A DNA stretch of 18,644 nt, from the IMG/VR virus record IMGVR_UViG_2627853678_000002, positions 1-18,644 of that record; one strand, written 5' to 3'. The number at the start of each line of letters is the position of its first letter. Positions within the stretch are counted from its first letter, which is position 1. This document shows positions 1 to 17,400 of the stretch, piece after piece. A program made the translations under genes and the position numbers. This DNA comes from a virus (lineage: Duplodnaviria; Heunggongvirae; Uroviricota; Caudoviricetes). The notes beneath the pieces are model-generated. The model saw only the letters and a program-made list of their open reading frames with translations. It was not told where the DNA came from and did no database searches.

Positions 1-2
1 CG

Positions 3-320
3 ATGTTATTCAGCGATCTGTTCAAATGTTATTACCCGATCTCGAGGAAGTTATTGAGTGATCTCCATTTCATGAAAATACGCACCAGTGACAGCTTTCA
101 GTTTATTCTCCACGAGAAAAAGAGAGCGGAAAGCGGTAAAAACGCCGGTCAGGAGTGGCTGGCGGTGGTTGGTTATTACCCGAAATTAAGCCAGCTCGTT
201 TCCGGCCTGATGCATCACGATATTCTGACCGGAAGCGCAAAGTCTTTTGCTGATTTAAACGCGCAGGTTGAGCAACTCAGCAAGCGTTGTTCAGAGGCTT
301 TTGGCTCATATGGCCGTTAA
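3..320 (+). CDS. hypothetical protein upstream of the replication gene (position of P2 orf80-83); true start uncertain
   Basis: 105-codon ORF ending 11 nt into gene A; no motif recognised; product not identified. Confidence 0.3.
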   Translation: MLFSDLFKCYYPISRKLLSDLHFMKIRTSDSFQFILHEKKRAESGKNAGQEWLAVVGYYPKLSQLVSGLMHHDILTGSAKSFADLNAQVEQLSKRCSEAFGSYGR

Positions 321-2580
321 AGCCTCCGGGCGTTTTGTCCCTCCGTCAGCATTTGCCGCAGGCACCGGTAAGGCGTTTACCGGTGCTTATGCATGGAACG
401 CGCCACGCGAGGCTGTCGGGCGCGAAAGACCCCTTACACGTGACGAGATGCGTCAGGTGCAAGGTGTTTTATCCACGATTAACCGCCTGCCTTACTTTTT
501 GCGCTCGCTGTTTACTTCACGCTATGACTACATCCGGCGCAATAAAAGCCCGGTGCACGGGTTTTATTTTCTCACATCCACTTTTCAGCGTCGTTTATGG
601 CCGCGCATTGAGCGTGTGAATCAGCGCCATGAAATGAACACCGACGCGTCGTTACTGTTTCTGGCAGAGCGTGACCACTATGCGCGCCTGCCGGGAATGA
701 ATGACAAGGAGCTGAAAAAATTTGCCGCCCGTATCTCATCGCAGCTTTTCATGATGTATGAGGAACTCAGCGATGCCTGGGTGGATGCGCATGGCGAGAA
801 AGAATCGCTGTTTACGGATGAGGCGCAGGCTCACCTGTATGGTCATGTTGCTGGCGCTGCACGAGCTTTCAATATTTCCCCTCTCTACTGGAAAAAATAC
901 CGTAAAGGGCAGATGACCACGAGGCAGGCATATTCTGCCATTGCCCGTCTGTTTAACGATGAGTGGTGGACTCATCAGCTCAAAGGCCAGCGTATGCGCT
1001 GGCATGAAGCGTTACTGATAGCTGTCGGGGAGGTCAATAAAGACCGTTCTCCTTATGCCAGTAAACACGCCATTCGTGATGTGCGTGCGCGTCGCCAGGC
1101 AAATCTGGAATTTCTTAAATCGTGTGACCTTGAAAACAGGGAAACCGGCGAGCGCATCGACCTTATCAGTAAGGTGATGGGCAGTATTTCTAATCCTGAA
1201 ATTCGCCGGATGGAGCTGATGAACACCATTGCCGGTATTGAGCGTTACGCCGCCGCAGAGGGTGATGTGGGGATGTTTATCACGCTGACCGCGCCGTCAA
1301 AGTATCACCCGACACGTCAGGTCAGAAAAGGCGAAAGTAAAACCGTTCAGCTTAATCACGGCTGGAACGATGAGGCATTTAATCCAAAGGATGCGCAGCG
1401 TTATCTCTGCCGCATCTGGAGCCTGATGCGCACGGCATTCAAGGATAATGATTTACAGGTCTACGGTTTGCGTGTCGTCGAGCCACACCACGACGGAACG
1501 CCGCACTGGCATATGATGCTTTTTTGTAATCCACGCCAGCGTAACCAGATTATCGAAATCATGCGTCGCTACGCGCTCAAAGAGGATGGAGACGAAAGAG
1601 GAGCTGCGCGAAACCGTTTTCAGGCAAAACACCTTAACCGGGGCGGTGCTGCGGGATATATCGCGAAATACATTTCAAAAAACATCGACGGCTATGCACT
1701 GGATGGTCAGCTCGATAACGACACCGGCAGGCCGCTGAAAGACACTGCAGCGGCTGTTACCGCATGGGCGTCAACGTGGCGCATCCCGCAATTTAAAACG
1801 GTTGGCCTGCCGACAATGGGGGCTTACCGTGAACTACGCAAATTGCCGCGCGGCGTCAGCATTGCTGATGAGTTTGACGAGCGCGTCGAGGCTGCACGCG
1901 CCGCCGCAGACAGTGGTGATTTTGCGTTGTATATCAGCGCGCAGGGCGGGGCAAATGTCCCGCGCGATTGTCAGACTGTCAGGGTCGCCCGTAGCCCGTC
2001 GGATGACGTTAACGAATACGAGGAAGAGGTCGAGAGAGTGGTCGGCATTTACGCGCCGCATCTCGGCGCGCGTCATATTCATATCACCAGAACGACGGAC
2101 TGGCGCATTGTGCCGAAAGTTCCGGTCGTTGAGCCTTTGACTTTAAAAAGCGGCATCGCCGCGCCTCGGAGTCCTGTCAATAACTGTGGAAAGCTCACCG
2201 GTGGTGATACTTCGTTACCGGCTCCCACACCTTCTGAACATGCCGCAGCCGTGCTTAATCTGGTTGATGACGGTGTTATCGGATGGAATGAGCCAGAGGT
2301 CGTGAGGGCGCTCAGAGGTGCATTAAAACACGGACTGAGAACACCAAATCGTCAGCAAAGAAGCGGAAGCCCGTTAAAACCGCATGAAATAGCGCCATCG
2401 GCCAGACTGACCCGGTCGGAACGAATGCAAATTACCCGTATCCGCGTTGACCTTGCTCAGAACGGTATCAGGCCGCAGCGATGGGAGCTTGAGGCGCTGG
2501 CGCGTGGGGCAACTGTAAATTACGACGGGAGAAGCTTCAGTTATCCTGTTATATGTGATTGGAGAGCGTATGAATTATGA
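310..2580 (+). CDS. A: rolling-circle replication initiation endonuclease gpA (HUH family)
   Basis: Long ORF whose translation from MAVKASGRFVPP matches the remembered P2 gpA N-terminus; contains HUH-like HWHMMLF and the tyrosine motif GYIAKYISKNIDGY. Start placed at ATG 310 rather than the ORF-track start 268. Confidence 0.9.
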   Translation: MAVKASGRFVPPSAFAAGTGKAFTGAYAWNAPREAVGRERPLTRDEMRQVQGVLSTINRLPYFLRSLFTSRYDYIRRNKSPVHGFYFLTSTFQRRLWPRIERVNQRHEMNTDASLLFLAERDHYARLPGMNDKELKKFAARISSQLFMMYEELSDAWVDAHGEKESLFTDEAQAHLYGHVAGAARAFNISPLYWKKYRKGQMTTRQAYSAIARLFNDEWWTHQLKGQRMRWHEALLIAVGEVNKDRSPYASKHAIRDVRARRQANLEFLKSCDLENRETGERIDLISKVMGSISNPEIRRMELMNTIAGIERYAAAEGDVGMFITLTAPSKYHPTRQVRKGESKTVQLNHGWNDEAFNPKDAQRYLCRIWSLMRTAFKDNDLQVYGLRVVEPHHDGTPHWHMMLFCNPRQRNQIIEIMRRYALKEDGDERGAARNRFQAKHLNRGGAAGYIAKYISKNIDGYALDGQLDNDTGRPLKDTAAAVTAWASTWRIPQFKTVGLPTMGAYRELRKLPRGVSIADEFDERVEAARAAADSGDFALYISAQGGANVPRDCQTVRVARSPSDDVNEYEEEVERVVGIYAPHLGARHIHITRTTDWRIVPKVPVVEPLTLKSGIAAPRSPVNNCGKLTGGDTSLPAPTPSEHAAAVLNLVDDGVIGWNEPEVVRALRGALKHGLRTPNRQQRSGSPLKPHEIAPSARLTRSERMQITRIRVDLAQNGIRPQRWELEALARGATVNYDGRSFSYPVICDWRAYEL

Positions 2581-2635
2581 GATTGTGATAAAAAGTAAAT
2601 AATTAATATAATGCAATTGCTTGACTGTTTTAAAA

Positions 2636-2666
2636 GGGACAACGTAGTTGTGAACTATATTGTCCC
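2636..2666. terminator. possible bidirectional hairpin between the convergent 3' ends of gene A and the 351-aa gene
   Basis: Inverted repeat GGGACAA (2636-2642) / TTGTCCC (2660-2666) in AT-rich DNA; on the minus strand it is followed by TTTTAAAA. Stem is short and the loop long, so support is weak. Confidence 0.3.
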
Positions 2667-2673
2667 GGGAGTA

Positions 2674-3729
2674 TTAATTTTTAAATATGGATTGTATGTA
2701 TTCTATAGTGCTATCTTTAGCTCTGATGTCTTTTAAAGTGTTATTTATGAAATCTATTATTCTGTCATTACTTAATAGTGGCGATAACGCATAACATGTT
2801 GTTGTGAATGTCATGACGTCACTAAAGCTTAGTGAAACACCTTTTGTCGCAGCGTTCTCAATCGCAAGAGACTCATCAATATCTAAGTTTGTTGCTCTTG
2901 GCCCTTTAAGGAAGATAACTTTTGAAATCCCGGATGCAGATGCTTTTGAAACGGCGTGATTAACATCTTGATAATTAAATGGTTTGTCTTTCACTTCTAT
3001 AGAAAGGAAAACTATATCATCATGATATACATCTATGTCCAGTATCTCTTTTGAGGAGCTACCGGCCTGATTGACGGGATGTGCTTTTATTATCCATCCT
3101 CTTTGTTCACCTAATAAATGTAACGAAATTGCGGCAGCAATCGCGCATGTTTCTCCATCACAAGGATGAGATATAATATTATAAATAATCTTATGGAAAT
3201 CAAAATTAATTGAGTTCGGCGTTATAACTCTATTGGTTCGCTGTAGGGTAAAATATAATGCAATAACAAGCATTTCATAAGCTAAGGTTTGGGTTGTTGC
3301 TGCATGTAATATATCAATTGAAAGTTGTTGTAAAACCTTATCATTTCCTCTGCGCACAGGGTTATCAGAGGAGTGGAGCATGTAACGAGCTGGTTTATTT
3401 AGAAATGGCTCATTTGATGCGCCTAACTTACCCTCTAAAAATGGGCCTTCTACTTTGCCTACTATTACCGAATGACATAAACTTCTTGCATCATAGGCTC
3501 CGTCTACGGGGGCATTAGCTTGTAAAGCCAGAGGGTTTACTCTAGGGTCTGTTGCTTTTGCAAGTAAACCAGTAATAAGTATATATCTGTATGTAAGGTG
3601 GGTGCCTAAAATTACATTTTGAATGGAGACCCATTGATTATTTGTTTTGTAATCAGTTAATTTTTTTGCATCGTTGATTGCATTTATAATTACATTATAG
3701 GCTTGCTCATGATTTACTAATACTTTCAT
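2674..3729 (-). CDS. uncharacterised 351-aa protein; putative PD-(D/E)xK-type nuclease, candidate restriction/defence effector
   Basis: 351-codon ORF in AT-rich DNA with AAGGA 7-11 nt upstream of the ATG; its start overlaps the 3' end of the upstream HTH gene by 23 nt. Candidate motif ILDIDVYHDD-IVFLSIEVK (D238...E245-x-K247, about nt 2989-3018). No Walker A motif seen. Confidence 0.5.
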   Translation of the reverse strand: MKVLVNHEQAYNVIINAINDAKKLTDYKTNNQWVSIQNVILGTHLTYRYILITGLLAKATDPRVNPLALQANAPVDGAYDARSLCHSVIVGKVEGPFLEGKLGASNEPFLNKPARYMLHSSDNPVRRGNDKVLQQLSIDILHAATTQTLAYEMLVIALYFTLQRTNRVITPNSINFDFHKIIYNIISHPCDGETCAIAAAISLHLLGEQRGWIIKAHPVNQAGSSSKEILDIDVYHDDIVFLSIEVKDKPFNYQDVNHAVSKASASGISKVIFLKGPRATNLDIDESLAIENAATKGVSLSFSDVMTFTTTCYALSPLLSNDRIIDFINNTLKDIRAKDSTIEYIQSIFKN

Positions 3730-4021
3730 AGGTGTCCTTTAGTAAGATATCCATTGGTAGACCTAATCGGCTTGCAACCACCTCTAATAATTCAAATAGT
3801 TCTAAAGCATCTAATCGCCTTTCAAAGCTTTCGATTTTAGATATATCTGATTGTGATAATCCTAGAAAAATGGCCAATTCTGACTGCGAAAGAGAAGCTT
3901 CTTTGCGTAGTTTGGTGAGAAGCTGGACTAGGCACCTGTATCTATGATCATGTATAGTTGGTTGTCGTTTTGCCATGTGGTTTAGAAGGTGATTGATTGT
4001 GTGTCGATCCTTACCTATCAT
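3707..4021 (-). CDS. small helix-turn-helix (XRE-like) transcriptional regulator; candidate controller (C) protein
   Basis: HTH-like segment ASLSQSELAIFLGLSQSDISKIE; sits directly upstream of and overlapping the 351-aa gene and divergent from the methyltransferase. Start ambiguous: ATG at 4021 (104 aa) or ATG at 3976 (89 aa); neither has a clear SD. Confidence 0.7.
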   Translation of the reverse strand: MIGKDRHTINHLLNHMAKRQPTIHDHRYRCLVQLLTKLRKEASLSQSELAIFLGLSQSDISKIESFERRLDALELFELLEVVASRLGLPMDILLKDTYESISKS

Positions 4022-5151
4022 TGGTTTTATTCCAAAATCGAATAATTGGTGCTAAAGAAGTGAACAAAATTTCAGCGGTGAGCTTATTTACTGGGGCAGG
4101 AGGGATGGATGTCGGTTTCTCTAATGCCGGGTTCCGAACAGTTTGGGCCAATGATATAGATAAGGATGCATGTGATACATTTAAGCTTAATCATGAATCA
4201 CCTGTTTTTTGTGGTGATATTGATGAGATGCTAAGTGAATTGTCTGGGCTGAAAAATATAGGTTGTGTTTTTGGTGGGCCTCCATGCCAAGGATTTTCTG
4301 TGGCAGGGAAAATGGACGCTCATGATCCACGTAGTAAGCTGGTTATGTCATTCATGCGGGCGGTGGATATAATTCAACCAGAATGCTTTGTTATGGAGAA
4401 TGTTAAGGCTTTAGCACAGTTGTCCAAATTTGAACCAGTTAGGTGTGAACTGTTTAAGATGGCTGAAAAGTCAGGCTATCGTTCAGCCTTGCTGGTGCTG
4501 AATTCTAAAGATTTTGGCGTTCCTCAGAATAGGGAACGTATGTTTTTTATAGGGTTTCGTTCCGAAAATGATGTGAAACGAGTTGAGGCAGCGATAAAAA
4601 AATACCAATATCTTTCGCCAACAGTTGGTGAGATTATTCGGCCTTTAGGGCGAGCGGGTAATCCAAACAATTCAAGAGTCTGTAATGCAAGGATTACAAA
4701 TGCTGCTAAGCCAGTATTACGGAAGTCACCTTACGCGGGAATGATGTTTAACGGGCAGGGAAGACCAATTAACCCGAATGGGTATGCTTCAACTATAGCT
4801 GCTTCTATGGGGGGGAATAGGACACCAATTATTGATGAAGAACACCTTTATGATGGCTCAACAAGTTATGTTGAGACTTATCATAATCATCTAATGAATG
4901 GTGGTGAGCCAAAAGATATGCACGATGTACCTAGTCGTTTACGTCGACTAACGATAGATGAGGCTCTTTTGATTCAAACATTCCCGAGTAATTATGTCTT
5001 TGTGGGGAAAAATTCGTCAATTTGGCGTCAGATAGGGAATGCTGTGCCTTGTAAATTGGCGCAGGCTGTTGCTGCAGGGGTTTTGGATGTCCTTACTGGT
5101 AAAACTATTAATGTTCAAAAGAGTCAAACAGAGTTGAGTTTGAATTCGTAA
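3997..5151 (+). CDS. DNA (cytosine-5)-methyltransferase
   Basis: Canonical C5-MTase motifs in order: I LFTGAGGMDVGF, IV GGPPCQGFS (Cys codon at 4285-4287), VI FVMENV, VIII QNRERMFFIGF, then a variable region and X RQIGNAVP. The 3997 start is TTG preceded by AGAAGGTGA; an in-frame GTG at 4060 is an alternative. Confidence 0.9.
   Translation: MCVDPYLSLVLFQNRIIGAKEVNKISAVSLFTGAGGMDVGFSNAGFRTVWANDIDKDACDTFKLNHESPVFCGDIDEMLSELSGLKNIGCVFGGPPCQGFSVAGKMDAHDPRSKLVMSFMRAVDIIQPECFVMENVKALAQLSKFEPVRCELFKMAEKSGYRSALLVLNSKDFGVPQNRERMFFIGFRSENDVKRVEAAIKKYQYLSPTVGEIIRPLGRAGNPNNSRVCNARITNAAKPVLRKSPYAGMMFNGQGRPINPNGYASTIAASMGGNRTPIIDEEHLYDGSTSYVETYHNHLMNGGEPKDMHDVPSRLRRLTIDEALLIQTFPSNYVFVGKNSSIWRQIGNAVPCKLAQAVAAGVLDVLTGKTINVQKSQTELSLNS
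4027..4045. promoter_or_regulatory. palindromic operator-like element in the divergent control region
   Basis: Perfect inverted repeat TTATTC-N7-GAATAA, read directly from the sequence, between or overlapping the 5' ends of the HTH gene and the methyltransferase gene. Confidence 0.3.
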
Positions 5152-5307
5152 AACGGATCACATTTTCAAACCGATGGATGCAGAATTTAACATTGCTGCA
5201 TGAGTTTGCATCTTGAAATCATAAGCTGTACTGCTTGGCTTGACCAGAATTGATGTGGGTAAGAAGTGGTTATGCACCCGCATTAAAACCGCCCCATTAA
5301 GCGGGCG

Positions 5308-5326
5308 GGCGAGGCGGGGAAAGCAC
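5308..5326. other. cos: cos site (19-nt cohesive-end sequence of P2-type phages)
   Basis: GGCGAGGCGGGGAAAGCAC matches my recollection of the P2 cohesive end and lies where expected, between the right-end cargo and the 3' end of Q. Confidence 0.6.
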
Positions 5327-5468
5327 TGCGCGCTGGCGGTGGTGCTGATTTTATTTTTTCAGCGTCTGAGCGCGTCGTGAAGGCGTTTACTTGGCCTGCC
5401 AGGGCGTCGGTGTGTCTGCGGGCTGTTTTGCGCGGTGGTGAGCGTGTGAGGGCGTGATGGCAGGTTGT

Positions 5469-5490
5469 AAAAAAGCCGCCCGCAGGCGGC
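5469..5490 (-). terminator. rho-independent terminator downstream of the portal gene
   Basis: On the minus strand, GC-rich hairpin GCCGCC-TGCG-GGCGGC followed by TTTTTT, immediately after the Q stop at 5496. Confidence 0.55.
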
Positions 5491-5495
5491 GATGT

Positions 5496-6529
5496 TCAGT
5501 CGTTGTCAGTGTCCAGTGAGTAGTTTTTAAAGCGGATGACCTCCTGACCGAGCCAGCCGTTTATTTCCCGAATCCTGTCCTGTAACGGGATTAGCTCATT
5601 GCGGACAAAGACCTTTGCCACTTTCTCAATATCGCCCAGTGACCCGACGTTCTCCGGCTTGCCACCCATCAACTGAAAGGGGATGCGGTGTGCGTCCAGC
5701 AGGTCAGCGGCGCTGGCTTTTTTGATATTAAAAAAATCGTCCTTCGTCGCCACTTCACTGAGCGGGATAATTTTAATGCCGTCGGCTTTCCCCTGCGGGG
5801 CATAGAGAAACAGGTTTTTAAAGTTGTTGCGGCCTTTTGACTTCACCATGTTTTCGCGAAGCATTTCGATATCGTTGCGATCCTGCACGGCATCGGTAAC
5901 GTACATGATGTATCCGGCATGTGCGCCGTTTTCGTAATACTTGCGGCGGAACAGCGTGGCCGACTCATTCAGCCAGGCAGAGTTAAGGGCGCTGAGATAT
6001 TCCGGCAGACCGTACAGCTCCTGATTAATATCCGGCTCCAGCAGGTGAAACACGGAGCCGGGCGCGAAAGGTGTCGGCTCGTTAAAGGACGGCACCCACC
6101 AGTAAACATCCTCTTCCACACCACGGCGGGTATATTTTGCCGGTGAGGTTTCCAGCCTGATAACTTTACCGGTGGTGCTGTAACGCTTTTCCAGAAACGC
6201 ATTACCGAACACCAGAAAATCCAGCACAAAGCGGCTGAAATCCTGCTGAGAAAGCCACGGATGCGGGATAAATGTCGAGGCCAGAATATTGCGTTTAACG
6301 TAAATCGGCGAGCTGTGATGCACGGCAGCACGCAGGCTTTTTGCCAGACCGGTAAAGCTGACCGGCGGCTCATACCATCTGCCGTTACTGATGCACTCGA
6401 CGTAATCCAGAATGTCACGGCGGTCGAGTACCGGCACCGGCTCACCAAAGGTGAATGCTCCATTTTCGGGGCGCTGGCGGTCATTGTTTTTGCCACAGGT
6501 TGCGGTGTTTTCCCTTTTTTCTTGCTCAT
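5496..6529 (-). CDS. Q: portal protein gpQ, interrupted by an apparent 1-nt frameshift near 6457-6460
   Basis: Two minus-strand ORFs in different frames (5969..6529 starting MSKKKGKTPQ, and 5496..6437) together span 344 codons, the length of P2 gpQ. The first starts in a TGATG overlap with the terminase stop. Frame switches between ...APKME and AFTFGEPVPVLDRR. Confidence 0.8.
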
Positions 6530-8301
6530 CAGTAAAACTCCAGAATGGTGGATGTCAGCGGGGTGCTGATACCGGCGGTGAGTGGCTCATTTAACAGGGC
6601 GTGCATGGTCGCCCAGGCGAGGTCGGCGTGGCTGGCTTCCTCGCTGCGGCTGGCCTCATAGGTGGCGCTGCGTCCGCTGCTGGTCATGGTCTTGCGGATA
6701 GCCATAAACGAGCTGGTGATGTCGGTGGCGCTGACGTCGTATTCCAGACAGCCACGGCGGATAACGTCTTTTGCCTTGAGCACCATTGCGGTTTTCATTT
6801 CCGGCGTGTAGCGGATGTCGCGCGCGGCAGGATAGAACGAGCGCACGAGCTGGAACACGCCGACACCGAGGCCGGTGGCATCAATACCGATGTATTCGAC
6901 GTTGTATTTTTCGGTGAGTTTGCGGATGGATTCCGCCTGGGTGGCAAAGTCCATGCCTTTCCACTGGTGACGCTCAAGTATTCTGAATTTGCCACCGGCA
7001 ACCACCGGCGGTGCCAGTACCACGCATCCGGCGCTGTCGCCACGGTGTGACGGGTCGTAACCAATCCAGACCGGGCGTGAGCCGAACGGATTGGCGGCAA
7101 ACGGCGCATAGTCTTCCCATTCTTCCAGCGTGTCGACCATGCAGCGTTGCAACTCCTCGAACGGGAACACCGACGCCTTGTCGTCAACAAATTCACACAT
7201 GAACAGGTTTTTAAAATCGTCGGCGCTGTTTTCGCGTTTGAGCTGCTCAATGTCGAACAGCGTGCAGCCGCCTTTCAGGGCGTCCTCAATGGTGACAATC
7301 TGCCGCCACTGGCCGTCCGCACAGAGAAGACCTCCGGCAAGTGCGTTATGACTGACGTCGATTTCCACGCGTTCAGCGGCGCTGGCGCGTCCCCGGTTAA
7401 ACAGTTCACCCGACCAGAACGGGTAGGCGTCGTGCGCCAGCGTGGACGGGGTGGAGAAATAGGTCGAACGCAGGTGACTCTGTGAGGCCATACCTGATGC
7501 CACCTTACGCAGTACCTGAAAATTCGGGATCCAGAAAATCTCATCGACGTACAGGTCGCCGTTATGGCTCTGCGCGGTGTTGGAGTTGGTGCCGAGAAAA
7601 ATCAGTTTTGCGCCGTTATTGCCCAGGACAATCGGGTCACCGGTCAGGTCAACGTCAACCAGACGGGCAAAGGCGATGATGTATTCGCGGAACACATACG
7701 CCTGCGTTTTACTGGCCGACAGAAAAATCTGGTTATGGCCGGTTTTCAGGGCGCGCAGCAGCGCCTCGCGGGAAAAATAAAACGTTGCGCCAATCTGGCG
7801 GGATTTCAGGATATCGCGGATGCGGTGCTCAAGCCCGGCGCGATACCAGTGCAACTGATATTCGAAAGACTGCTCAAAGAAAATCTGCTCCAGCTTTTCG
7901 ATGGCTTCGTCGCTGAAAAAATTCTTTTTCGGTTTGCGGCGCCCGCCTTTGTTGCGGTTAGCGACGTTCGGATTAAGGTCTGCCTCGTTGCCGGTCTGAC
8001 TGTAGCGGTTGACCCGCGCCAGCCGTTCAATCTGGCGTCCCAGCAGGTCAATTTCCTTGAAGTCACCGCCGGTTTTCTGCGGTTTGATGATGAGCTGGGT
8101 CAGCCGCGCTTCCAGACTCATTTCGACACGGCTGATGGGGGCAACGCTGTCCCAGCCGTCGCGCTGTTTCCAGCTCTGCACCGTCGGGCGTTTCATCTGC
8201 AACATGGCGGCAATCTGCGGCACGGAAAACCCCTGCCAGTACAGCAGCGCCGCCTGACGACGCGGGTCGTGTAAAAGAGTGGTGTCTGTGGTGATGGTCA
8301 T
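6529..8301 (-). CDS. P: terminase large (ATPase) subunit gpP
   Basis: 600-codon ORF; ATG at 8301 with GAGG upstream gives 590 aa (MTITTDTTLL...), the size of P2 gpP; it is followed directly by the portal gene as in P2. Confidence 0.9.
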   Translation of the reverse strand: MTITTDTTLLHDPRRQAALLYWQGFSVPQIAAMLQMKRPTVQSWKQRDGWDSVAPISRVEMSLEARLTQLIIKPQKTGGDFKEIDLLGRQIERLARVNRYSQTGNEADLNPNVANRNKGGRRKPKKNFFSDEAIEKLEQIFFEQSFEYQLHWYRAGLEHRIRDILKSRQIGATFYFSREALLRALKTGHNQIFLSASKTQAYVFREYIIAFARLVDVDLTGDPIVLGNNGAKLIFLGTNSNTAQSHNGDLYVDEIFWIPNFQVLRKVASGMASQSHLRSTYFSTPSTLAHDAYPFWSGELFNRGRASAAERVEIDVSHNALAGGLLCADGQWRQIVTIEDALKGGCTLFDIEQLKRENSADDFKNLFMCEFVDDKASVFPFEELQRCMVDTLEEWEDYAPFAANPFGSRPVWIGYDPSHRGDSAGCVVLAPPVVAGGKFRILERHQWKGMDFATQAESIRKLTEKYNVEYIGIDATGLGVGVFQLVRSFYPAARDIRYTPEMKTAMVLKAKDVIRRGCLEYDVSATDITSSFMAIRKTMTSSGRSATYEASRSEEASHADLAWATMHALLNEPLTAGISTPLTSTILEFY

Positions 8302-8474
8302 GAATACCTCGCCGTGATGAATACACGGCAAGGCTACTGAGTCGCGCCCCGCGATTCGCTAAGGTGCTGTTGTGTCAGTGATAAGCCATCCGGGACTGAT
8401 GGCGGAGGATGCGTATCGTCGGGAAACTGATGCCGACATGTGACTCCTCTAATCACTATTCAGGACTCCTGACA
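8302..8474. promoter_or_regulatory. divergent control region between P/Q (minus) and the O-N-M-L operon (plus); presumed late promoters
   Basis: 173-bp non-coding gap between divergent starts; contains dyad GTGA-N9-TCAC at about 8440-8456. No exact TGT-N12-ACA element was found, so promoter positions are not assigned. Confidence 0.3.
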
Positions 8475-9329
8475 ATGGCAAAAAAAGTCTCAAAATTCTT
8501 TCGTATCGGCGTTGAGGGTGACACCTGTGACGGGCGTGTCATCAGTGCGCAGGATATTCAGGAAATGGCCGAAACCTTTGACCCGCGTGTCTATGGTTGC
8601 CGCATTAACCTGGAACATCTGCGCGGCATCCTGCCTGACGGTATTTTTAAACGTTATGGCGATGTGGCAGAACTGAAGGCCGAAAAGATTGACGATGATT
8701 CGGCGCTGAAAGGCAAATGGGCGCTGTTTGCGAAAATCACCCCGACCGATGACCTTATCGCGATGAACAAGGCCGCGCAGAAGGTCTACACCTCAATGGA
8801 AATTCAGCCGAACTTTGCCAACACCGGCAAATGTTATCTGGTGGGGCTGGCCGTCACCGATGACCCGGCAAGCCTCGGTACGGAATACCTGGAATTCTGC
8901 CGCACGGCAAAACACAACCCTCTGAACCGCTTCAAATTAAGCCCTGAAAACCTGATTTCAGTGGCAACGCCCGTTGAGCTGGAATTTGAAGACCTGCCTG
9001 AAACCGTGTTCACCGCCCTGACCGAAAAGGTGAAATCCATTTTTGGCCGCAAACAGGCCAGCGATGACGCCCGTCTGAATGACGTGCATGAAGCGGTGAC
9101 CGCTGTTGCTGAACATGTGCAGGAAAAACTGAGCGCCACTGAGCAGCGCCTCGCTGAGATGGAAACTGCCTTTTCCGCTCTTAAGCAGGAGGTGACTGAC
9201 AGGGCGGATGAAACCAGCCAGGCATTCAGCCGCCTGAAAAACAGTCTCGACAACACCGAAAGTCTGACCCAGCAGCGCCGCAGCAAGGCCACCGGCGGTG
9301 GCGGTGACGCCCTGATGACGAACTGCTGA
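8475..9329 (+). CDS. O: capsid scaffolding protein gpO
   Basis: Translation from MAKKVSKFFRIGVEGDTCDGR is 284 aa and matches the remembered P2 gpO; AGGA lies 9-12 nt upstream of ATG 8475. The ORF-track start at 8409 is judged a spurious upstream extension. Confidence 0.9.
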   Translation: MAKKVSKFFRIGVEGDTCDGRVISAQDIQEMAETFDPRVYGCRINLEHLRGILPDGIFKRYGDVAELKAEKIDDDSALKGKWALFAKITPTDDLIAMNKAAQKVYTSMEIQPNFANTGKCYLVGLAVTDDPASLGTEYLEFCRTAKHNPLNRFKLSPENLISVATPVELEFEDLPETVFTALTEKVKSIFGRKQASDDARLNDVHEAVTAVAEHVQEKLSATEQRLAEMETAFSALKQEVTDRADETSQAFSRLKNSLDNTESLTQQRRSKATGGGGDALMTNC

Positions 9330-9387
9330 CCGGCGTCAGCCAGTCCGGGAAAACCTTCACGATTAACCCTTAATTTCAGGAAAAACT

Positions 9388-10460
9388 ATGCGCCAGGAAA
9401 CCCGCTTTAAATTTAATGCCTACCTGTCCCGTGTTGCCGAACTGAACGGCATCGACGCCGGTGATGTGTCGAAAAAATTCACCGTTGAACCGTCGGTCAC
9501 CCAGACCCTGATGAACACCATGCAGGAGTCCTCTGACTTTCTGACCCGCATCAACATTGTGCCGGTCAGCGAAATGAAAGGGGAAAAAATTGGTATTGGT
9601 GTCACCGGCTCCATCGCCAGCACCACCGACACCGCCGGTGGCACCGAGCGTCAGCCGAAGGACTTCTCGAAGCTGGCGTCCAGTAAGTACGAATGCGACC
9701 AGATTAACTTCGATTTTTATATCCGCTACAAAACGCTGGACCTGTGGGCGCGTTATCAGGATTTCCAGCTCCGTATCCGTAACGCCATTATCAAACGCCA
9801 GTCCCTTGATTTCATCATGGCCGGTTTTAACGGCGTGAAGCGTGCCGAAACCTCTGACCGCAACAGCAATCCGATGTTGCAGGATGTGGCGGTCGGCTGG
9901 CTGCAGAAATACCGCAATGAAGCCCCGGCGCGCGTGATGAGCAAGGTCACTGACGAGGAAGGCCGCACCACCTCTGAGGTTATCCGCGTGGGTAAGGGCG
10001 GTGATTATGCCAGCTTGATGCACTGGTGATGGATGCGACCAACAACCTGATTGAGCCGTGGTATCAGGAAGACCCTGACCTTGTGGTGATTGTGGGGCGT
10101 CAGTTACTGGCGGACAAGTATTTCCCCATCGTTAACAAGGAGCAGGACAACAGCGAAATGCTGGCCGCTGACGTCATCATCAGCCAGAAACGCATCGGTA
10201 ACCTGCCGGCGGTACGCGTCCCGTACTTCCCGGCGGATGCGATGCTCATCACGAAGCTGGAAAACCTGTCCATCTACTACATGGATGACAGTCATCGCCG
10301 CGTGATTGAGGAAAACCCGAAACTTGACCGCGTGGAGAACTACGAGTCAATGAACATTGATTACGTGGTGGAAGACTACGCCGCCGGTTGTCTGGTGGAA
10401 AAAATTAAGGTCGGTGATTTCTCCACACTGGCTAAAGCGACCGCAGAGCCGGGAGCGTAA
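9388..10460 (+). CDS. N: major capsid protein gpN, interrupted by an apparent 1-nt frameshift near 10015-10019
   Basis: ORFs 9388..10029 (MRQETRFKFNAYLSRV...GGDYASL) and 10026..10460 (MDATNNLIEPWYQ...AEPGA) are adjacent frames of one capsid gene; the second frame reads LDALVMDATNN upstream of its listed start. Confidence 0.85.
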
Positions 10461-10463
10461 CCG

Positions 10464-11207
10464 ATGACGAGTCCCGCACAGCGCCACATGATGCGGGTCT
10501 CGGCAGCGATGACCGCGCAGCGGGAAGCCGCCCCGCTGCGACATGCAACTGTCTATGAGCAGATGCTGGTTAAGCTCGCCGCAGACCAGCGCACACTGAA
10601 AGCGATTTATTCAAAAGAGCTGAAGGCCGCGAAAAAACGCGAACTGCTGCCGTTCTGGTTGCCGTGGGTGAACGGCGTGCTGGAGCAGGGCAAAGGTGCA
10701 CAGGATGACATTCTGATGACGGTCATGCTGTGGCGTCTGGATACCGGCGATATTGCCGGTGCGCTGGAGATTGCCCGTTACGCCCTGAAGTACGGCCTGA
10801 CCATGCCGGGTAAACACCGCCGCACCCCGCCGTACATGTTCACCGAGGAGGTGGCGCTCGCGGCCATGCGCGCTCACGCTGCCGGTGAGTCTGTGGATCC
10901 CCGCCTGCTGACGGACACCCTCGAACTGACCGCCACGGCTGACATGCCTGATGAAGTGCGCGCAAAGCTGCACAAAATCACCGGTCTGTTTCTGCGTGAC
11001 GCTGGTGATGCCGCAGGTGCGCTGGCGCACCTGCAACGTGCGACACAGCTCGACTGTCAGGCAGGCGTCAAAAAAGAGATTGAACGACTGGAGCGGGAGC
11101 TGAAACCGAAGCCGGAGCCGCAGCCCAAAGCGGCCACCCGCGCCCCGCGTAAGACCCGGAGCGTGACACCGGCAAAACGTGGACGCCCGAAAAAGAAAGC
11201 CAGTTAA
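10464..11207 (+). CDS. M: terminase small subunit gpM
   Basis: 247-aa ORF in the gpM position and size; basic Lys/Pro-rich C-terminal tail. Confidence 0.85.
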   Translation: MTSPAQRHMMRVSAAMTAQREAAPLRHATVYEQMLVKLAADQRTLKAIYSKELKAAKKRELLPFWLPWVNGVLEQGKGAQDDILMTVMLWRLDTGDIAGALEIARYALKYGLTMPGKHRRTPPYMFTEEVALAAMRAHAAGESVDPRLLTDTLELTATADMPDEVRAKLHKITGLFLRDAGDAAGALAHLQRATQLDCQAGVKKEIERLERELKPKPEPQPKAATRAPRKTRSVTPAKRGRPKKKAS

Positions 11208-11306
11208 CAACCGAATGCGCCCCGCGCCAGGGCGGCACGCCGGTCAGTGAGGGTGAATCACCTGACGCTGTACCGGCGTCCACCGCCCGACTTTTCAGAG
11301 GTAGTC

Positions 11307-11816
11307 ATGATGACGCTGATTATTCCGCGAAAGGAGGCTCCCGTGTCCGGTGAGGGTACGGTGGTCATCCCGCAACCGGCAGGCGACGAGCCGGTGATTA
11401 AAAACACGTTCTTTTTTCCCGATATCGACCCGAAGCGCGTCCGGGAACGTATGCGACTTGAGCAGACCGTCGCCCCCGCCCGTCTGCGTGAGGCCATCAA
11501 GTCAGGCATGGCGGAGACGAATGCGGAGCTGTACGAGTACCGCGAACAGAAAATTGCTGCCGGTTTTACGCGTCTGGCGGACGTTCCGGCGGACGACATC
11601 GACGGTGAAAGTATCAAAGTTTTTTACTACGAGCGCGCCGTGTGTGCGATGGCGACCGCGTCGCTTTATGAGCGTTATCGCGGCGTGGATGCCAGTGCGA
11701 AAGGGGACAAGAAGGCCGACAGCATTGACAGCACCATTGATGAGTTGTGGCGGGATATGCGCTGGGCAGTGGCGCGCATCCAGGACAAGCCGCGCTGCAT
11801 CGTGAGTCAAATCTGA
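11307..11816 (+). CDS. L: head completion/stabilisation protein gpL
   Basis: Start at ATG 11307 (MMTLIIPRKEAP, GAGG upstream) gives 169 aa as in P2 gpL; the stop overlaps the X start. Confidence 0.8.
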   Translation: MMTLIIPRKEAPVSGEGTVVIPQPAGDEPVIKNTFFFPDIDPKRVRERMRLEQTVAPARLREAIKSGMAETNAELYEYREQKIAAGFTRLADVPADDIDGESIKVFYYERAVCAMATASLYERYRGVDASAKGDKKADSIDSTIDELWRDMRWAVARIQDKPRCIVSQI

Positions 11817-12019
11817 TGAAGACCTTTGCGCTACAGGGCGACACGCTCGACGCCATTTGTGTCCGGTATTACGGGCGCACTGAGGGCGTGGTCGAGGCCG
11901 TGCTCGCCGCAAATCCGGGACTGGCTGAACTGGGTGCGGTGCTGCCGCACGGCACCGCCGTCGAACTGCCCGACGTTCAGACCGCGCCCGTGGCTGAAAC
12001 TGTCAATCTGTGGGAGTAA
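11816..12019 (+). CDS. X: tail protein X
   Basis: 67-aa product from ATG 11816 (MKTFALQGDTLDAICVRYYG...), the size and position of P2 gpX. Confidence 0.75.
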   Translation: MKTFALQGDTLDAICVRYYGRTEGVVEAVLAANPGLAELGAVLPHGTAVELPDVQTAPVAETVNLWE

Positions 12020-12022
12020 CGC

Positions 12023-12304
12023 ATGACAGCAGAAGAAAAAAGCGTCCTGTCGCTTTTCATGATTGGGGTGCTGATTGTTGTCGGCAAGGTGCTTGCCGGT
12101 GGTGAATCCATCACCCCGCGTCTGTTTATCGGGCGCATGTTACTCGGTGGTTTTGTCTCGATGGTTGCCGGTGTTGTTCTGGTGCAGTTTCCTGACCTGT
12201 CACTGCCTGCGGTGTGCGGCATCGGCTCCATGCTGGGTATCGCCGGTTATCAGGTGATTGAGATTGCCATTCAGCGCCGCTTTAAGGGCAGGGGGAAACC
12301 GTAA
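12023..12304 (+). CDS. Y: holin gpY
   Basis: 93-aa protein with hydrophobic transmembrane segments and a charged C-terminus (RRFKGRGKP); first gene of the lysis cassette. Confidence 0.8.
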   Translation: MTAEEKSVLSLFMIGVLIVVGKVLAGGESITPRLFIGRMLLGGFVSMVAGVVLVQFPDLSLPAVCGIGSMLGIAGYQVIEIAIQRRFKGRGKP

Positions 12305-12801
12305 TGCCGGTTATTAACACGCATCAGAATATCGCCGCCTTTCTCGACATGCTGGCCGTGTCCGAAGGGACGGCAAACCATCCGCTGACGAAAAACCGGG
12401 GCTATGACGTGATAGTCACCGGACTGGACGGGAAGCCGGAAATTTTCACCGACTACAGTGACCACCCGTTCGCACATGGCCGACCGGCGAAGGTGTTTAA
12501 CCGTCGCGGTGAAAAATCCACGGCCTCCGGTCGCTATCAGCAGCTTTACCTGTTCTGGCCGCATTACCGCAAACAGCTTGCCCTGCCGGATTTCAGTCCG
12601 TTGTCACAGGACAGACTTGCCATTCAGTTGATCCGCGAACGCGGTGCACTGGATGACATCCGGGCGGGACGCATTGAGCGCGCCATTTCACGCTGTCGCA
12701 ATATCTGGGCGTCCCTGCCGGGTGCCGGTTACGGTCAGCGTGAGCATTCACTGGAAAAACTGGTCACCGTCTGGCGTACCGCTGGCGGCGTACCGGCTTA
12801 A
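12304..12801 (+). CDS. K: endolysin gpK
   Basis: 165-aa ORF starting in a TAATG overlap with the Y stop; position and length match P2 gpK. Confidence 0.85.
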   Translation: MPVINTHQNIAAFLDMLAVSEGTANHPLTKNRGYDVIVTGLDGKPEIFTDYSDHPFAHGRPAKVFNRRGEKSTASGRYQQLYLFWPHYRKQLALPDFSPLSQDRLAIQLIRERGALDDIRAGRIERAISRCRNIWASLPGAGYGQREHSLEKLVTVWRTAGGVPA

Positions 12802-12815
12802 ACGGAGTAAACACC

Positions 12816-13241
12816 ATGAAGAAATTATCCCTTTCACTGATGCTGAACGTGTCGCTGGCGCTGATGCTGGCACTGTCCCTGATTTACCCGCAGAGCGTGG
12901 CCGTCAGTTTTGTCGCTGTCTGGGCGATTCTGGCGACGGTTATCTGTGTGGTTGCCGGTGGTGTCGGCGTGTATGCCACAGAGTATGTACTGGAACGCTA
13001 CGGGCGGGAGCTGCCGCCGGAATCGCTGGCCGTGAAGATTGTCGCATCGCTGTTTTTGCAGCCGGTGCCGTGGCGCAGACGGGCAGTGGCTCTGGTGGTG
13101 ATGGTGACGACGTTTATCTCGCTGGTCGCTGCCGGGTGGATTTTTACCGCGCTGATTTATCTCGTGGCGTCGCTGTTCTTCCGGCTGATACGTACGGCCT
13201 GCCGTCAGCGTTTTGAGGGGCGGGAACCATGTCAAAGCTGA
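12816..13241 (+). CDS. lysA: lysis accessory membrane protein LysA
   Basis: 141-aa strongly hydrophobic protein following K, as in P2. Confidence 0.7.
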   Translation: MKKLSLSLMLNVSLALMLALSLIYPQSVAVSFVAVWAILATVICVVAGGVGVYATEYVLERYGRELPPESLAVKIVASLFLQPVPWRRRAVALVVMVTTFISLVAAGWIFTALIYLVASLFFRLIRTACRQRFEGREPCQS

Positions 13242-13654
13242 TGACTGTGCTGGTCGTGTTGTTATCGCTGGCGGTGGCGGGGCTGTTTCTGGCGAAGCAT
13301 GAAAACGCCAGCCTGCGCGCCTCGCTGGACAGGGCGAACAACGTCGCCAGTGAACAGCAGACGACCATCACCATGCTGAAAAACCAGCTTCATGTTGCAC
13401 TCACCAGGGCAGATAAAAACGAGCTGGCGCAGGTGGCACTGCGTCAGGAACTGGAAAACGCCGCGAAGCGTGAAGCACAGCGCGAGAAAACCATCACGAG
13501 GTTACTTAATGAAAACGAAGATTTTCGCCGCTGGTACGGTGCTGACCTGCCTGATGCTGTGCGCCGGTTGCACCAGCGCCCGGCCTGCGCCGACGCCAGT
13601 GATTGTCCACAACGCCTGCCCGAAAGTGAGTCTTTGCCCGATGCCGGGCAGTGA
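13229..13654 (+). CDS. lysB: LysB, Rz-like inner-membrane spanin
   Basis: 141 aa with an N-terminal transmembrane segment and a coiled-coil-like periplasmic region. Confidence 0.75.
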   Translation: MSKLMTVLVVLLSLAVAGLFLAKHENASLRASLDRANNVASEQQTTITMLKNQLHVALTRADKNELAQVALRQELENAAKREAQREKTITRLLNENEDFRRWYGADLPDAVRRLHQRPACADASDCPQRLPESESLPDAGQ

Positions 13655-13799
13655 CCCGGAGACGAACGGCGATTTAAGTGCCGATATCCGGCAGCTTGAG
13701 AACGCGCTGGCACGCTGTGCCAGCCAGGTAAAAATGATTAAACACTGTCAGGATGAAAACTATGCTCAAACCCGACAGCCTGCGCAGGGCGCTGACTGA
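13509..13799 (+). CDS. lysC: LysC, Rz1-like outer-membrane lipoprotein spanin, nested in the +1 frame of lysB
   Basis: 96-aa product from ATG 13509 with signal peptide and lipobox LMLCAGC; embedded in and extending past lysB. Confidence 0.7.
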   Translation: MKTKIFAAGTVLTCLMLCAGCTSARPAPTPVIVHNACPKVSLCPMPGSDPETNGDLSADIRQLENALARCASQVKMIKHCQDENYAQTRQPAQGAD

Positions 13800-14229
13800 T
13801 GCCGTCACGGTGCTGAAAACCAGTCCCGAGATGCTGCGGATATTCGTGGATAACGGGAGTATTGCCTCCACACTGGCGACGTCGTTGTCATTCGAAAAGC
13901 GTTACACGCTCAATGTCATTGTGACCGACTTTACCGGTGATTTTGACCTGCTCATTGTGCCGGTGCTGGCGTGGCTGCGGGAAAATCAGCCCGACATCAT
14001 GACCACCGACGCAGGCCAGAAAAAGGGCTTCACATTTTATGCAGACATCAACAATGACAGCAGCTTTGATATCAGTATCAGCCTGATGCTGACCGAGCGC
14101 ACGCTGGTCAGTGAGGTGGACGGCGCGCTGCATGTGAAGAATATCCCGGAACCTCCGCCGCCGGAGCCGGTCACCCGCCCGATGGAGCTGTATATCAATG
14201 GCGAACTGGTGAGCAAGTGGGATGAATGA
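13762..14229 (+). CDS. R: tail completion protein gpR
   Basis: 155 aa from ATG 13762 (MLKPDSLRRALTDAV...); an in-frame ATG at 13753 is an alternative start. Confidence 0.8.
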   Translation: MLKPDSLRRALTDAVTVLKTSPEMLRIFVDNGSIASTLATSLSFEKRYTLNVIVTDFTGDFDLLIVPVLAWLRENQPDIMTTDAGQKKGFTFYADINNDSSFDISISLMLTERTLVSEVDGALHVKNIPEPPPPEPVTRPMELYINGELVSKWDE

Positions 14230-14680
14230 GTTTAAGCGTTTTGAAGACCGGCTGACCGGACTGATTGAATCGCTGTCACCGTCAGGGCGTCGGCGACTGG
14301 CGGTAGATATTGCGAAGAAGCTGCGCCAGCGCCAGCAGCAGCGAATTAAATTACAAAAAGCCCCGGATGGTACGCCGTATGTACCGAGAAAAAACCAACC
14401 AGTACGAAATAAGAAAGGCCGGATAAAGCGGGAAATGTTTGTGAAATTACGCACTAACCGGTTTATGAAAGCAACAGGTAGCGAGAGTGCGGCGGTGGTG
14501 GCGTTTGCCAGCGGAGTACAACGAATTGCGCGAGTACATCAATTAGGGCTTAGGGATAAGCCGGGGCGTAATAGTGCTGTGGTGGAATATCCTGTTCGCG
14601 AGTTATTTGGTTTTGACAAGGAATCTATACAATTGATAGAAAGGGAGTTATTAGTGATTCTATCGAAAGATGTTATATGA
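14222..14680 (+). CDS. S: tail completion protein gpS (3' third is more AT-rich, possibly mosaic)
   Basis: 152 aa beginning MNEFKRFEDRLTGLIESLSP in the gpS position; its stop overlaps the next start in ATGA. Confidence 0.8.
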   Translation: MNEFKRFEDRLTGLIESLSPSGRRRLAVDIAKKLRQRQQQRIKLQKAPDGTPYVPRKNQPVRNKKGRIKREMFVKLRTNRFMKATGSESAAVVAFASGVQRIARVHQLGLRDKPGRNSAVVEYPVRELFGFDKESIQLIERELLVILSKDVI

Positions 14681-14973
14681 GACGGGTGTTTGTGGATAAA
14701 AAGTTTTCCATTTTGAGAAAAAGAGTAAAGCATTCTCAAAAGAAAGTTATGGATTGTATTATTGCTGACCATAATGCTGATATATGTGTGTTATGCGGGA
14801 GTTCTGACGATATTACTCGTGAGCACATTATTCCTCAGTGGGCCTTTGAGTCAAATGCTGAAAAATCTTTAATTAATAAAAAGAATAATCAGTCAACTCA
14901 TTACATTAAAGCCACTGTACCAGCATGCAGAGTGTGCAATTCTGATTTGCTGGGAGTGTTTGAGTATACCTGA
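14677..14973 (+). CDS. small HNH-endonuclease-like protein (cargo in the S-V variable locus)
   Basis: 98-aa ORF in AT-rich DNA with an HNH/His-Me-finger-like pattern: CVLC ... REHIIPQW ... NKKNN ... H ... CRVCN. Confidence 0.6.
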   Translation: MRRVFVDKKFSILRKRVKHSQKKVMDCIIADHNADICVLCGSSDDITREHIIPQWAFESNAEKSLINKKNNQSTHYIKATVPACRVCNSDLLGVFEYT

Positions 14974-15041
14974 AGAAATTTCTTACGGAAAAGAGGGGAG
15001 AGGAGTTAACAGATTATGAGTATGATTGCATCATATGGTGG

Positions 15042-15431
15042 TTGCAATACATGGGTTTTAAGTTGCAATTAATGGATTTGCGGAACCGCTTTCTCAGGTA
15101 TAAAGGTGGTGATTATATCCCGTTCCTTGCAAACTTTCCGGTTGCAATGTTTTGGGGGAATGTCGATACGACGCCGGGGGATGTCTTCAGGATTATACGA
15201 AAATCGCGACGCAATCTGATGTCGAAATGGAAGGATAAAAAACATAATTCTTTGATGGTTTTTGAAACATCAAACAAGAGTTTTCATTTCTTTCATAAGG
15301 TTGATGAATTTATTTTTATTGAAATGCCTCAGGTTAAGAAGGCGTTTTTCTTCTTTTTTAATAAAGAATTTGACAGCCATGATTTAGCTCATGAGGAGTG
15401 TATGAAGATTATAGAGAAGTGCTACAACTAA
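15042..15431 (+). CDS. hypothetical protein (cargo in the S-V variable locus)
   Basis: 129-codon ORF in AT-rich DNA, where an open frame of this length is unlikely by chance; the listed start is TTG and ATG at 15051 (GGTGG upstream) is more likely. No motif recognised. Confidence 0.5.
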   Translation: MQYMGFKLQLMDLRNRFLRYKGGDYIPFLANFPVAMFWGNVDTTPGDVFRIIRKSRRNLMSKWKDKKHNSLMVFETSNKSFHFFHKVDEFIFIEMPQVKKAFFFFFNKEFDSHDLAHEECMKIIEKCYN

Positions 15432-15508
15432 TATTTATTATGTTGTATCACAGCTGACAGAATCCTCCATGATTGCTGCTGGTATCGTCCAGCGGCATCC
15501 TTCCCGTT

Positions 15509-16143
15509 ATGAACACTCTCGCAAATATTCAGGAACTCGCGCGCGCACTGCGCAATATGATTCGCACCGGCATTATCGTCGAAACCGACCTTAACGCCGG
15601 TCGCTGCCGTGTGCAGACCGGCGGCATGTGCACCGACTGGTTGCAGTGGCTGACTCATCGTGCTGGGCGTTCGCGCACATGGTGGGCACCTTCCGTGGGG
15701 GAACAGGTGCTGATTCTGTCCGTGGGCGGCGAACTCGACACGGCGTTTGTTCTGCCGGGGATTTATTCCGGCGATAACCCTGCGCCGTCTGCGTCGGCGG
15801 ATGCCCTGCATATCCGTTTCCCTGACGGGGCGGTGATTGAGTATGAACCCGAAACCAGTGCACTCACGGTAAGCGGAATTAAAACGGCCAGCGTGACGGC
15901 TTCTGATTCTGTTACTGCCACGGTGCCGGTGGTCATGGTGAAAGCATCAACCGCGTCACTCTGGACACGCCGGAGGTGGTCTGCACAAACAGGCTGATCA
16001 CCGGCACGCTGGAAGTGCAGAAGGGCGGGACGATGCGCGGCAACATTGAACACACCGGCGGTGAACTCTCATCAAACGGGAAGGTACTGCATACCCATAA
16101 ACACCCCGGCGACAGCGGCGGCACAACCGGGAGTCCTCTATGA
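15509..16143 (+). CDS. V: baseplate assembly/spike protein gpV, interrupted by an apparent 1-nt frameshift near 15951-15953
   Basis: Translation from ATG 15509 (MNTLANIQELARALRNMIRTG...) matches the remembered P2 gpV; the frame terminates at 15997, while the adjacent frame continues RVTLDTPEVVCTNRLITGTLEVQKGG...GSPL to a stop overlapping the W start. Confidence 0.8.
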
Positions 16144-16487
16144 CAGCGCGTTATCTCGGAATGAATCGCAGTGATGGCCTGACTGTCTCTGACCTTGAGC
16201 ATATCAGCCAGAGTATCGGCGATATCCTGCGCACGCCGGTCGGCTCACGGGTGATGCGTCGTGATTACGGCTCGTTGCTGGCGTCAATGATTGACCAACC
16301 GCAGACCCCGGCGCTTGAGTTGCAGATTAAGGTCGCCTGTTACATGGCGGTGCTGAAATGGGAACCCCGCGTCACCCTGTCATCCGTCACTACGGCGCGC
16401 AGTTTTGACGGGCGAATGACGGTCACGTTAACCGGCCAGCACAACGACACCGGCCAGCCACTTTCGTTAACCATCCCTGTGAGTTGA
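16140..16487 (+). CDS. W: baseplate wedge protein gpW
   Basis: 115-aa ORF in the gpW position and size. Confidence 0.85.
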   Translation: MTARYLGMNRSDGLTVSDLEHISQSIGDILRTPVGSRVMRRDYGSLLASMIDQPQTPALELQIKVACYMAVLKWEPRVTLSSVTTARSFDGRMTVTLTGQHNDTGQPLSLTIPVS

Positions 16488-16491
16488 AACC

Positions 16492-17400
16492 ATGCCGATT
16501 ATCGACCTGAACCAGCTACCCGCACCGGATGTGGTCGAGGAGCTGGACTTTGAAACCATTCTCGCTGAACGCAAGGCGACACTGATTTCCCTTTACCCGG
16601 AAGACCAGCAGGAGGCGGTCGCCCGTACCCTGACGCTGGAATCCGAGCCTCTCGTCAAACTGCTGGAGGAAAATGCTTATCGTGAGCTTATCTGGCGTCA
16701 GCGTGTGAATGAGGCCGCACGGGCGGTGATGCTGGCCTGTGCCGCCGGTAATGACCTTGATGTTATTGGTGCCAATTACAACACCACGCGCCTGATTATC
16801 ACCCCGGCAGATGATTCGACCATCCCGCCGACACCGGCAGTAATGGAATCTGACACGGATTATCGTCTGCGTATTCAGCAGGCGTTTGAAGGTTTAAGCG
16901 TCGCCGGGTCGGTGGGTGCCTATCAGTATCATGGCCGCAGTGCTGACGGGCGTGTCGCGGATATCTCTGTCACCAGTCCGTCTCCGGCCTGTGTCACCAT
17001 CTCTGTGCTGTCACGTGAAAATAACGGTGTCGCTTCCGAAGACTTGCTGGCGGTGGTGCGTAACGCCCTTAATGGCGAGGACGTCAGGCCGGTGGCCGAC
17101 CGCGTGACCGTGCAGTCTGCCGCCATTGTTGAATATCAGATAAACGCCACGCTTTACCTTTACCCTGGTCCCGAAAGCGAACCCATCCGCGCTGCTGCCG
17201 TGAAAAAACTGGAAGCGTATATCACGGCACAGCACCGGCTGGGGCGCGACATCCGTCTGTCTGCCATTTATGCCGCTTTGCATGTGGAGGGCGTGCAGCG
17301 TGTCGAGCTGGCCGCACCACTGGCCGACATCGTGCTCAACAGTACGCAGGCGTCTTTCTGTACCGAATACCGCGTCGTGACCGGAGGCTCGGATGAGTGA
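16492..17400 (+). CDS. J: baseplate protein gpJ
   Basis: 302-aa ORF in the gpJ position and size. Confidence 0.85.
   Translation: MPIIDLNQLPAPDVVEELDFETILAERKATLISLYPEDQQEAVARTLTLESEPLVKLLEENAYRELIWRQRVNEAARAVMLACAAGNDLDVIGANYNTTRLIITPADDSTIPPTPAVMESDTDYRLRIQQAFEGLSVAGSVGAYQYHGRSADGRVADISVTSPSPACVTISVLSRENNGVASEDLLAVVRNALNGEDVRPVADRVTVQSAAIVEYQINATLYLYPGPESEPIRAAAVKKLEAYITAQHRLGRDIRLSAIYAALHVEGVQRVELAAPLADIVLNSTQASFCTEYRVVTGGSDE

Follow-up and report, generated by a model that had tools for sequence, protein, structure and literature searches.

How should a portal gene that opens in one reading frame and continues in another be read, as a lesion of the prophage that carries it or as an error in the deposited consensus? 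This question is raised by gene Q in a stretch of 18,644 nt holding a P2-like prophage of E. coli (referred to below as the window, meaning the whole stretch at its full length). On the minus strand, direct translation from the ATG at 6529 gives 24 codons, MSKKKGKTPQPVAKTMTASAPKME (6529-6458, ending PKME), after which the frame is lost. Past the break the ATG frame reads HSPLVS... nonsense, and the whole ORF amounts to 186 aa (5969-6529, minus strand). The body of the portal, ...AFTFGEPVPVLDRR..., is found in the adjacent frame and is open to the stop at 5496; translated across the break region, this frame reads ...NGAFTFGEPVPVLDRRDILDYVEC..., is stop-free down to 5496 and is also open upstream beyond the ATG. 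Its longest start-to-stop ORF is initiated by GTG and encodes 313 aa (5496-6437), while the third minus-strand frame carries many stops in the portal region.

Alignment with the closest genome places the missing base at 6457/6458, where the plus strand reads AATG-CTCC against AATGCCTCC. On the coding strand this corresponds to GAG|GCA minus one G, and on the plus strand to C for CC at 6458. Insertion of one C after 6457 generates an ORF of 344 codons, the product of which is identical to the portal of E. coli MS 124-1 at 344/344 residues, with no other sign of decay, and to P2 gpQ at 341/344. The minus-strand text at 6380-6560 runs from ctg gag ttt tac through TGATG into agc aag aaa aaa ggg, and further on from ccg aaa atg gag into cat tca cct, such that the portal ATG and the terminase TGA overlap by 1 nt (TGATG, 6529). 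The original prediction had placed the first 24 codons in one frame and the rest in the adjacent one, ascribed the shift to a G lost at the GAG/GCA junction, counted 344 and 313 codons for the restored and the GTG-initiated frames, and coupled the portal to the terminase stop; the translation, the alignment and the observed overlap agree with it on each of these points.

The identity of the gene is supported by both its product and its surroundings. The 313-aa body scores 52.8 bits and the repaired 344-aa protein 52.5 bits against Pfam Phage_portal PF04860 (gathering cut-off 39.1). The gene lies downstream of and overlaps gene P, adjoins cos, and follows the order seen in NC_001895. Moreover, the DNA of the Q-P region is 96.9-97.3% identical to that of P2, Wphi, fiAA91-ss and other Peduovirus phages, and P2-like prophages with a similar region occur in 1,681 of the 5,426 complete E. 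coli genomes searched; the matches listed there are annotated as "phage portal protein" and terminase. Once repaired, the window thus has the arrangement of P2 gpQ (NP_046757.1; Peduovirus P2, NC_001895), with 344 codons, a 1-nt overlap with P and the adjacent cosL. As deposited, by contrast, its ORF is split after codon 24, a split that is present in no other P2-like sequence examined. The features are collected in Table 1.

Table 1. Coordinates in the window of the portal locus, the four single-nucleotide deletions relative to E. coli MS 124-1, and neighbouring features.
Feature	Position	Strand	Remarks
SacI-family endonuclease, 351 aa	2674-3729	-	
HTH controller protein	3707-4021	-	
C5 cytosine methyltransferase	3997-5151	+	
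cos site	5308..5326	+	Identical over 19/19 nt to the cosL cohesive end of P2, where cos likewise follows Q
Portal gene Q, codons 25-344 and stop (AFTFGEPVPVLDRR...)	5496..6457	-	Adjacent frame; Pfam Phage_portal PF04860
Frame-break site	6457..6458	-	Single C (plus strand), CC in every relative
Deletion 1, portal gene Q	6458		CC to C
Portal gene Q, first 24 codons (MSKKKGKTPQPVAKTMTASAPKME)	6458..6529	-	Start codon shares 1 nt with the terminase stop
Terminase large (ATPase) subunit gene P, 590 aa, intact	6529..8301	-	Translationally coupled to Q
Deletion 2, major capsid gene N (9388-10460)	10013..10014	+	CC to C; leaves two ORFs, of 213 aa and 144 aa
Deletion 3, 246-aa HNH-like ORF between S and V	14967..14968	+	AA to A; not in the SRR1765575 assembly
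Deletion 4, baseplate spike gene V	15950..15951	+	CCC to CC; V truncated; not in the SRR1765575 assembly

The two-base form of the site is the rule among relatives. With the allele at the site scored by homopolymer run length (regex), CC is present in 21/21 other loci that cover it, and these include ten prophages with SacI-type cargo, six contigs with an identical gpA, and the phages P2, Wphi and fiAA91-ss. One uninterrupted ORF of ~344 codons, absent from the deposited contig, is likewise present in all 21 of these relatives. A short-query BLAST with the deleted 70-mer gave no exact full-length match in the 5,426 complete E. coli genomes; a single record reached at least 99% identity, as a partial match. 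The repaired 71-mer is exact in 306 records. Exact-product look-ups in an index of 153 billion genes returned the 313-aa portal product nowhere, and the 162-aa V fragment and the 98-aa HNH-like fragment had no record elsewhere. A split portal (286 + 57 aa) does occur in the P2-like prophage of CP026641.1, which carries the same restriction-modification cargo (locus L010, 7202-8235 and 8541-9733); its methyltransferase is also split and its capsid region is missing. These splits could be true decay or the product of another error-prone assembly.

The origin of the window points to the sequencing platform. An exact-product search with the replication protein gpA identified the window as the whole of contig JXRF01000142.1 of GCA_000832005.1 (18,644 bp, 100% identical, same coordinates; gpA, for example, occupies 310-2580 in both), and the annotation of this contig has no gene called over portal or capsid. 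The announcement of JXRF00000000 describes an isolate from well water in India, named "E24377A", sequenced from an Ion Xpress library on the Ion Proton (~3 million singleton reads, 101x coverage), assembled de novo with CLC Workbench into 453 contigs and annotated with RAST (5,305 CDS in 4.9 Mb) [PMC4384488]. Indel errors are frequent in Ion semiconductor data, and the deletions among them cluster at homopolymers [PMC5556038]. Among the 5,426 complete E. coli genomes, a near-identical prophage region was found only in MS 124-1, and the runner-up matches the portal region at 98.1% identity. Since MS 124-1 is the sole near-identical genome, the strain label "E24377A" looks like a best-match assignment rather than an identity.

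MS 124-1 (NZ_CP146654.1) is the nearest finished genome, and its portal is an intact CDS of 1,035 nt. Its prophage (2.93-2.96 Mb) is integrated beside pflA and carries SacI-family restriction-modification cargo between gene A and cos, as does that of the window. Unlike the window, it has Q, N, V and the HNH-like ORF intact and has kept the early region from cox to TraR. Over 84-18644 the window is 99.97% identical to it, with 6 differences. Two are substitutions, both C/T, at 12107 and 18578. The remaining four are 1-nt indels, all of them deletions in the window, all within homopolymers of 2-3 nt, and each disrupting a gene that is intact in MS 124-1, i.e., Q, N, the 246-aa HNH-like ORF and V (Table 1). 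Two further indels, at positions 46 and 67, fall within the terminal 84 nt of the contig, ahead of this alignment. About 45% of the bases lie in runs of at least 2 nt, and four out of four deletions in runs would be only modestly unlikely by chance (p about 0.04). In natural divergence, substitutions usually far outnumber indels. Judged from the sequence comparison, an indel-to-substitution ratio of 4:2, with deletions only and in homopolymers only, is the signature expected of flow-chemistry under-calling.

An independent assembly bears directly on the site. Three Logan contigs of run SRR1765575 tile 56-18534 of the window. These contigs share with it three private markers, the junction at 84 (discussed below), T at 12107 and the capsid deletion at 10014, and since these markers are in no other locus examined, the contigs represent the same strain as the window. 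At 6458 they read CC, and their portal, of 344 aa, has the same sequence as in MS 124-1. Moreover, they lack the deletions of the window at 14968 and 15951 and its insertion at 67, and the V and HNH-like genes are intact. In all, the contigs and the window differ in indel type only, by five indels, of which the one at 12053-12055 has a base change next to it. The absence of three of the four frameshifts, that of the portal included, from this assembly indicates that these three are specific to the CLC consensus. The deletions at 14968 and 15951, being missing both here and in MS 124-1, are classed together with the portal break as artefacts. The exception is the capsid deletion at 10014, which alone among the four is shared by the SRR1765575 contigs; for the 213-aa capsid fragment, an exact-product search gave one other occurrence in the gene index, on a Logan contig of this run, and the remaining two contigs were reached through gpA and tail protein I. 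This frameshift is either a systematic Ion error or a genuine frameshift of the strain. The shared markers, the accession date and the character of the errors suggest that SRR1765575 very probably comprises the same Ion reads as those behind the assembly of the window, and we infer from the second assembly that the reads themselves favour CC at 6458.

Taken together, the identity of the contig, the platform, the pattern of the lesions and the intact allele in an independent assembly lead us to conclude, with high confidence, that the frame break in the portal is a consensus error of the Ion Proton/CLC draft and not a mutation. Ion semiconductor chemistry under-calls homopolymer lengths, and in the proposed sequence of events the CC doublet at 6458 would have been written as C, so that an otherwise perfect 344-codon portal was broken after codon 24, with the other 320 codons left in the adjacent frame. 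Gene Q itself is most likely a single uninterrupted ORF in the organism, translationally coupled to the terminase gene P. What was found is what such an artefact predicts: a platform prone to homopolymer errors, one break among several 1-nt deletions in runs, and a lesion that is absent from an independent assembly. The likeness to known under-calls in Ion Torrent/Ion Proton (and 454) drafts extends to several 1-nt homopolymer deletions per contig, each splitting a gene with an intact homologue, and to lesions seen neither in a second assembly nor in the finished genome of the closest strain. However, the affected runs of the window are just 2-3 nt long, whereas errors become more frequent as runs lengthen, and doublets are a weaker hotspot of Ion errors than runs of at least 4 nt. 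The capsid deletion, which both assemblies contain, also weighs against an artefact, since it means that one lesion or more could be real. Moreover, if the prophage were already dead, further real frameshifts would be neutral.

The original prediction had left the choice between a sequencing indel and a prophage that is incapable of making virions. The first of these is upheld by the Ion/CLC origin of the draft, the three further deletions and the independent CC, while failure of virion production through Q is not. It had also named, as the observation that would settle the matter in favour of an assembly error, high-accuracy reads with an extra G restoring a single frame of 344 codons. That base was essentially recovered, although in the SRR1765575 assembly and not in reads.

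The main competing explanation is a real pseudogenisation, in which a true 1-nt deletion in Q reflects the decay of an already defective prophage. The state of the early region gives this explanation some weight. Relative to MS 124-1, a clean deletion of 1,816 bp leaves the first 13 nt of cox fused to the interior of a DUF5405 gene: window positions 1-84 correspond to the sequence just upstream of cox plus its first 13 nt in MS 124-1, and the junction at 84 creates a fusion ORF from the start of Cox and DUF5405. The genes lost are cox, a RepB-like gene, DUF2732, a second DUF5405 gene and a TraR-like gene. The deletion is probably real because the same junction is also present in an SRR1765575 contig (L020; k-mer assembly), which gives it read support. 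In addition, the start of the contig coincides with the exact end of a copy of ISEc12 (IS21 family) that lies between the C repressor gene and cox in MS 124-1. Together with the capsid frameshift at 10014 that is common to both assemblies, the deletion and the IS end suggest that selection on Q may be relaxed. Nevertheless, the SRR1765575 assembly, an independent one from the same strain, has Q intact and shows just one of the four deletions. Four indels against two substitutions in 18.5 kb, with every indel a homopolymer deletion, are also unlike the usual natural divergence; the platform is indel-prone, and the allele is in no other genome examined. We therefore regard a real loss of the base as improbable. 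Slightly less probable still is a composite case, in which the single-C allele would be real in at least part of the culture, a prophage crippled by the loss of cox-B-region genes having gained homopolymer frameshifts in its head genes Q and N with an unusually high ratio of indels to substitutions, for example in a mismatch-repair-deficient host, with rare -1 slippage on the A-run of the Lys codons possibly giving some full-length portal.

A mixed population, with both alleles present in the culture and a different one picked by each assembler, would account for two assemblies, apparently of one strain, that disagree at 6458. The same assemblies also differ at 67, 12053-12055, 14968 and 15951, and always by indels. 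Disagreements of this single type suggest platform noise rather than several polymorphisms co-segregating in one culture, and we give a mixed population very little credence.

Expression of a portal despite the break, either by recoding, with a -1 slip in translation or in transcription, or with the GTG at 6437 as start codon, is the least probable of the explanations, with next to no likelihood. The body frame is open upstream past the ATG, and a slip on the A-run of the Lys codons (AAG AAA AAA GGG, codons 3-5) would in principle reach it. The shift needed is -1, however, and the first 43 codons of the N-terminal frame contain no in-phase X_XXY_YYZ heptamer. A run of six A residues is too short for efficient transcriptional slippage, and the same A6 run is present in relatives without the break, every one of which has a continuous ORF of 344 codons and no conserved recoding site. 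Programmed -1 frameshifting and transcriptional slippage were rejected on these grounds, i.e., a heptamer that is out of phase or absent, a short A6 run and a break that is not conserved. The suggestion that a GTG-initiated portal of 313 aa is normal in close relatives fails in turn, as 344 codons are found in 21/21 loci (P2, Wphi and fiAA91-ss included) and the 313-aa product is on record nowhere in the gene index.

Acquitting Q is a separate matter from the viability of the prophage. In MS 124-1, a second copy of ISEc12 was noted in the tail-gene region, at the place expected for the tape-measure gene (the two copies are at 2373-4675 in locus L001 and at 16849-19151 in locus L025). The lineage of this prophage looks IS-disrupted, and the prophage is probably defective irrespective of the portal. 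It may lack virion production for reasons other than Q, namely the early-region deletion, which probably also blocks induction, a likely IS insertion and possibly the capsid frameshift.

Two further regions of the window were noticed. One is a type II restriction-modification cassette of three genes (2674-5151; Table 1) between the replication gene A and cos, a position that is the variable (tin/old) cargo slot of P2. The exact SacI-family endonuclease occurs in 2,007 blocks of the assembly collection, and among the 10 matches listed it is always in P2-like prophages. The other is the HNH-like ORF (14692-15431) between the tail gene S and the baseplate gene V, with CxxC...H motifs and an intact copy of 246 aa at 21295-22035 in locus L001. 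Its score against HNH_5 is 16 bits, below the cut-off of 27.5 (Pfam), and searches of PADLOC and Pfam gave nothing above threshold. From its sequence and position, this ORF may be an uncharacterised moron.

In this contig, the consensus carries about one false frameshift per 5 kb, and on the strength of its structural genes the prophage would be falsely labelled as defective. In drafts from Ion Torrent, 454 or uncorrected long reads, frameshifts in essential phage genes need read-level support, and without it they should not be taken as evidence of prophage decay or of recoding.
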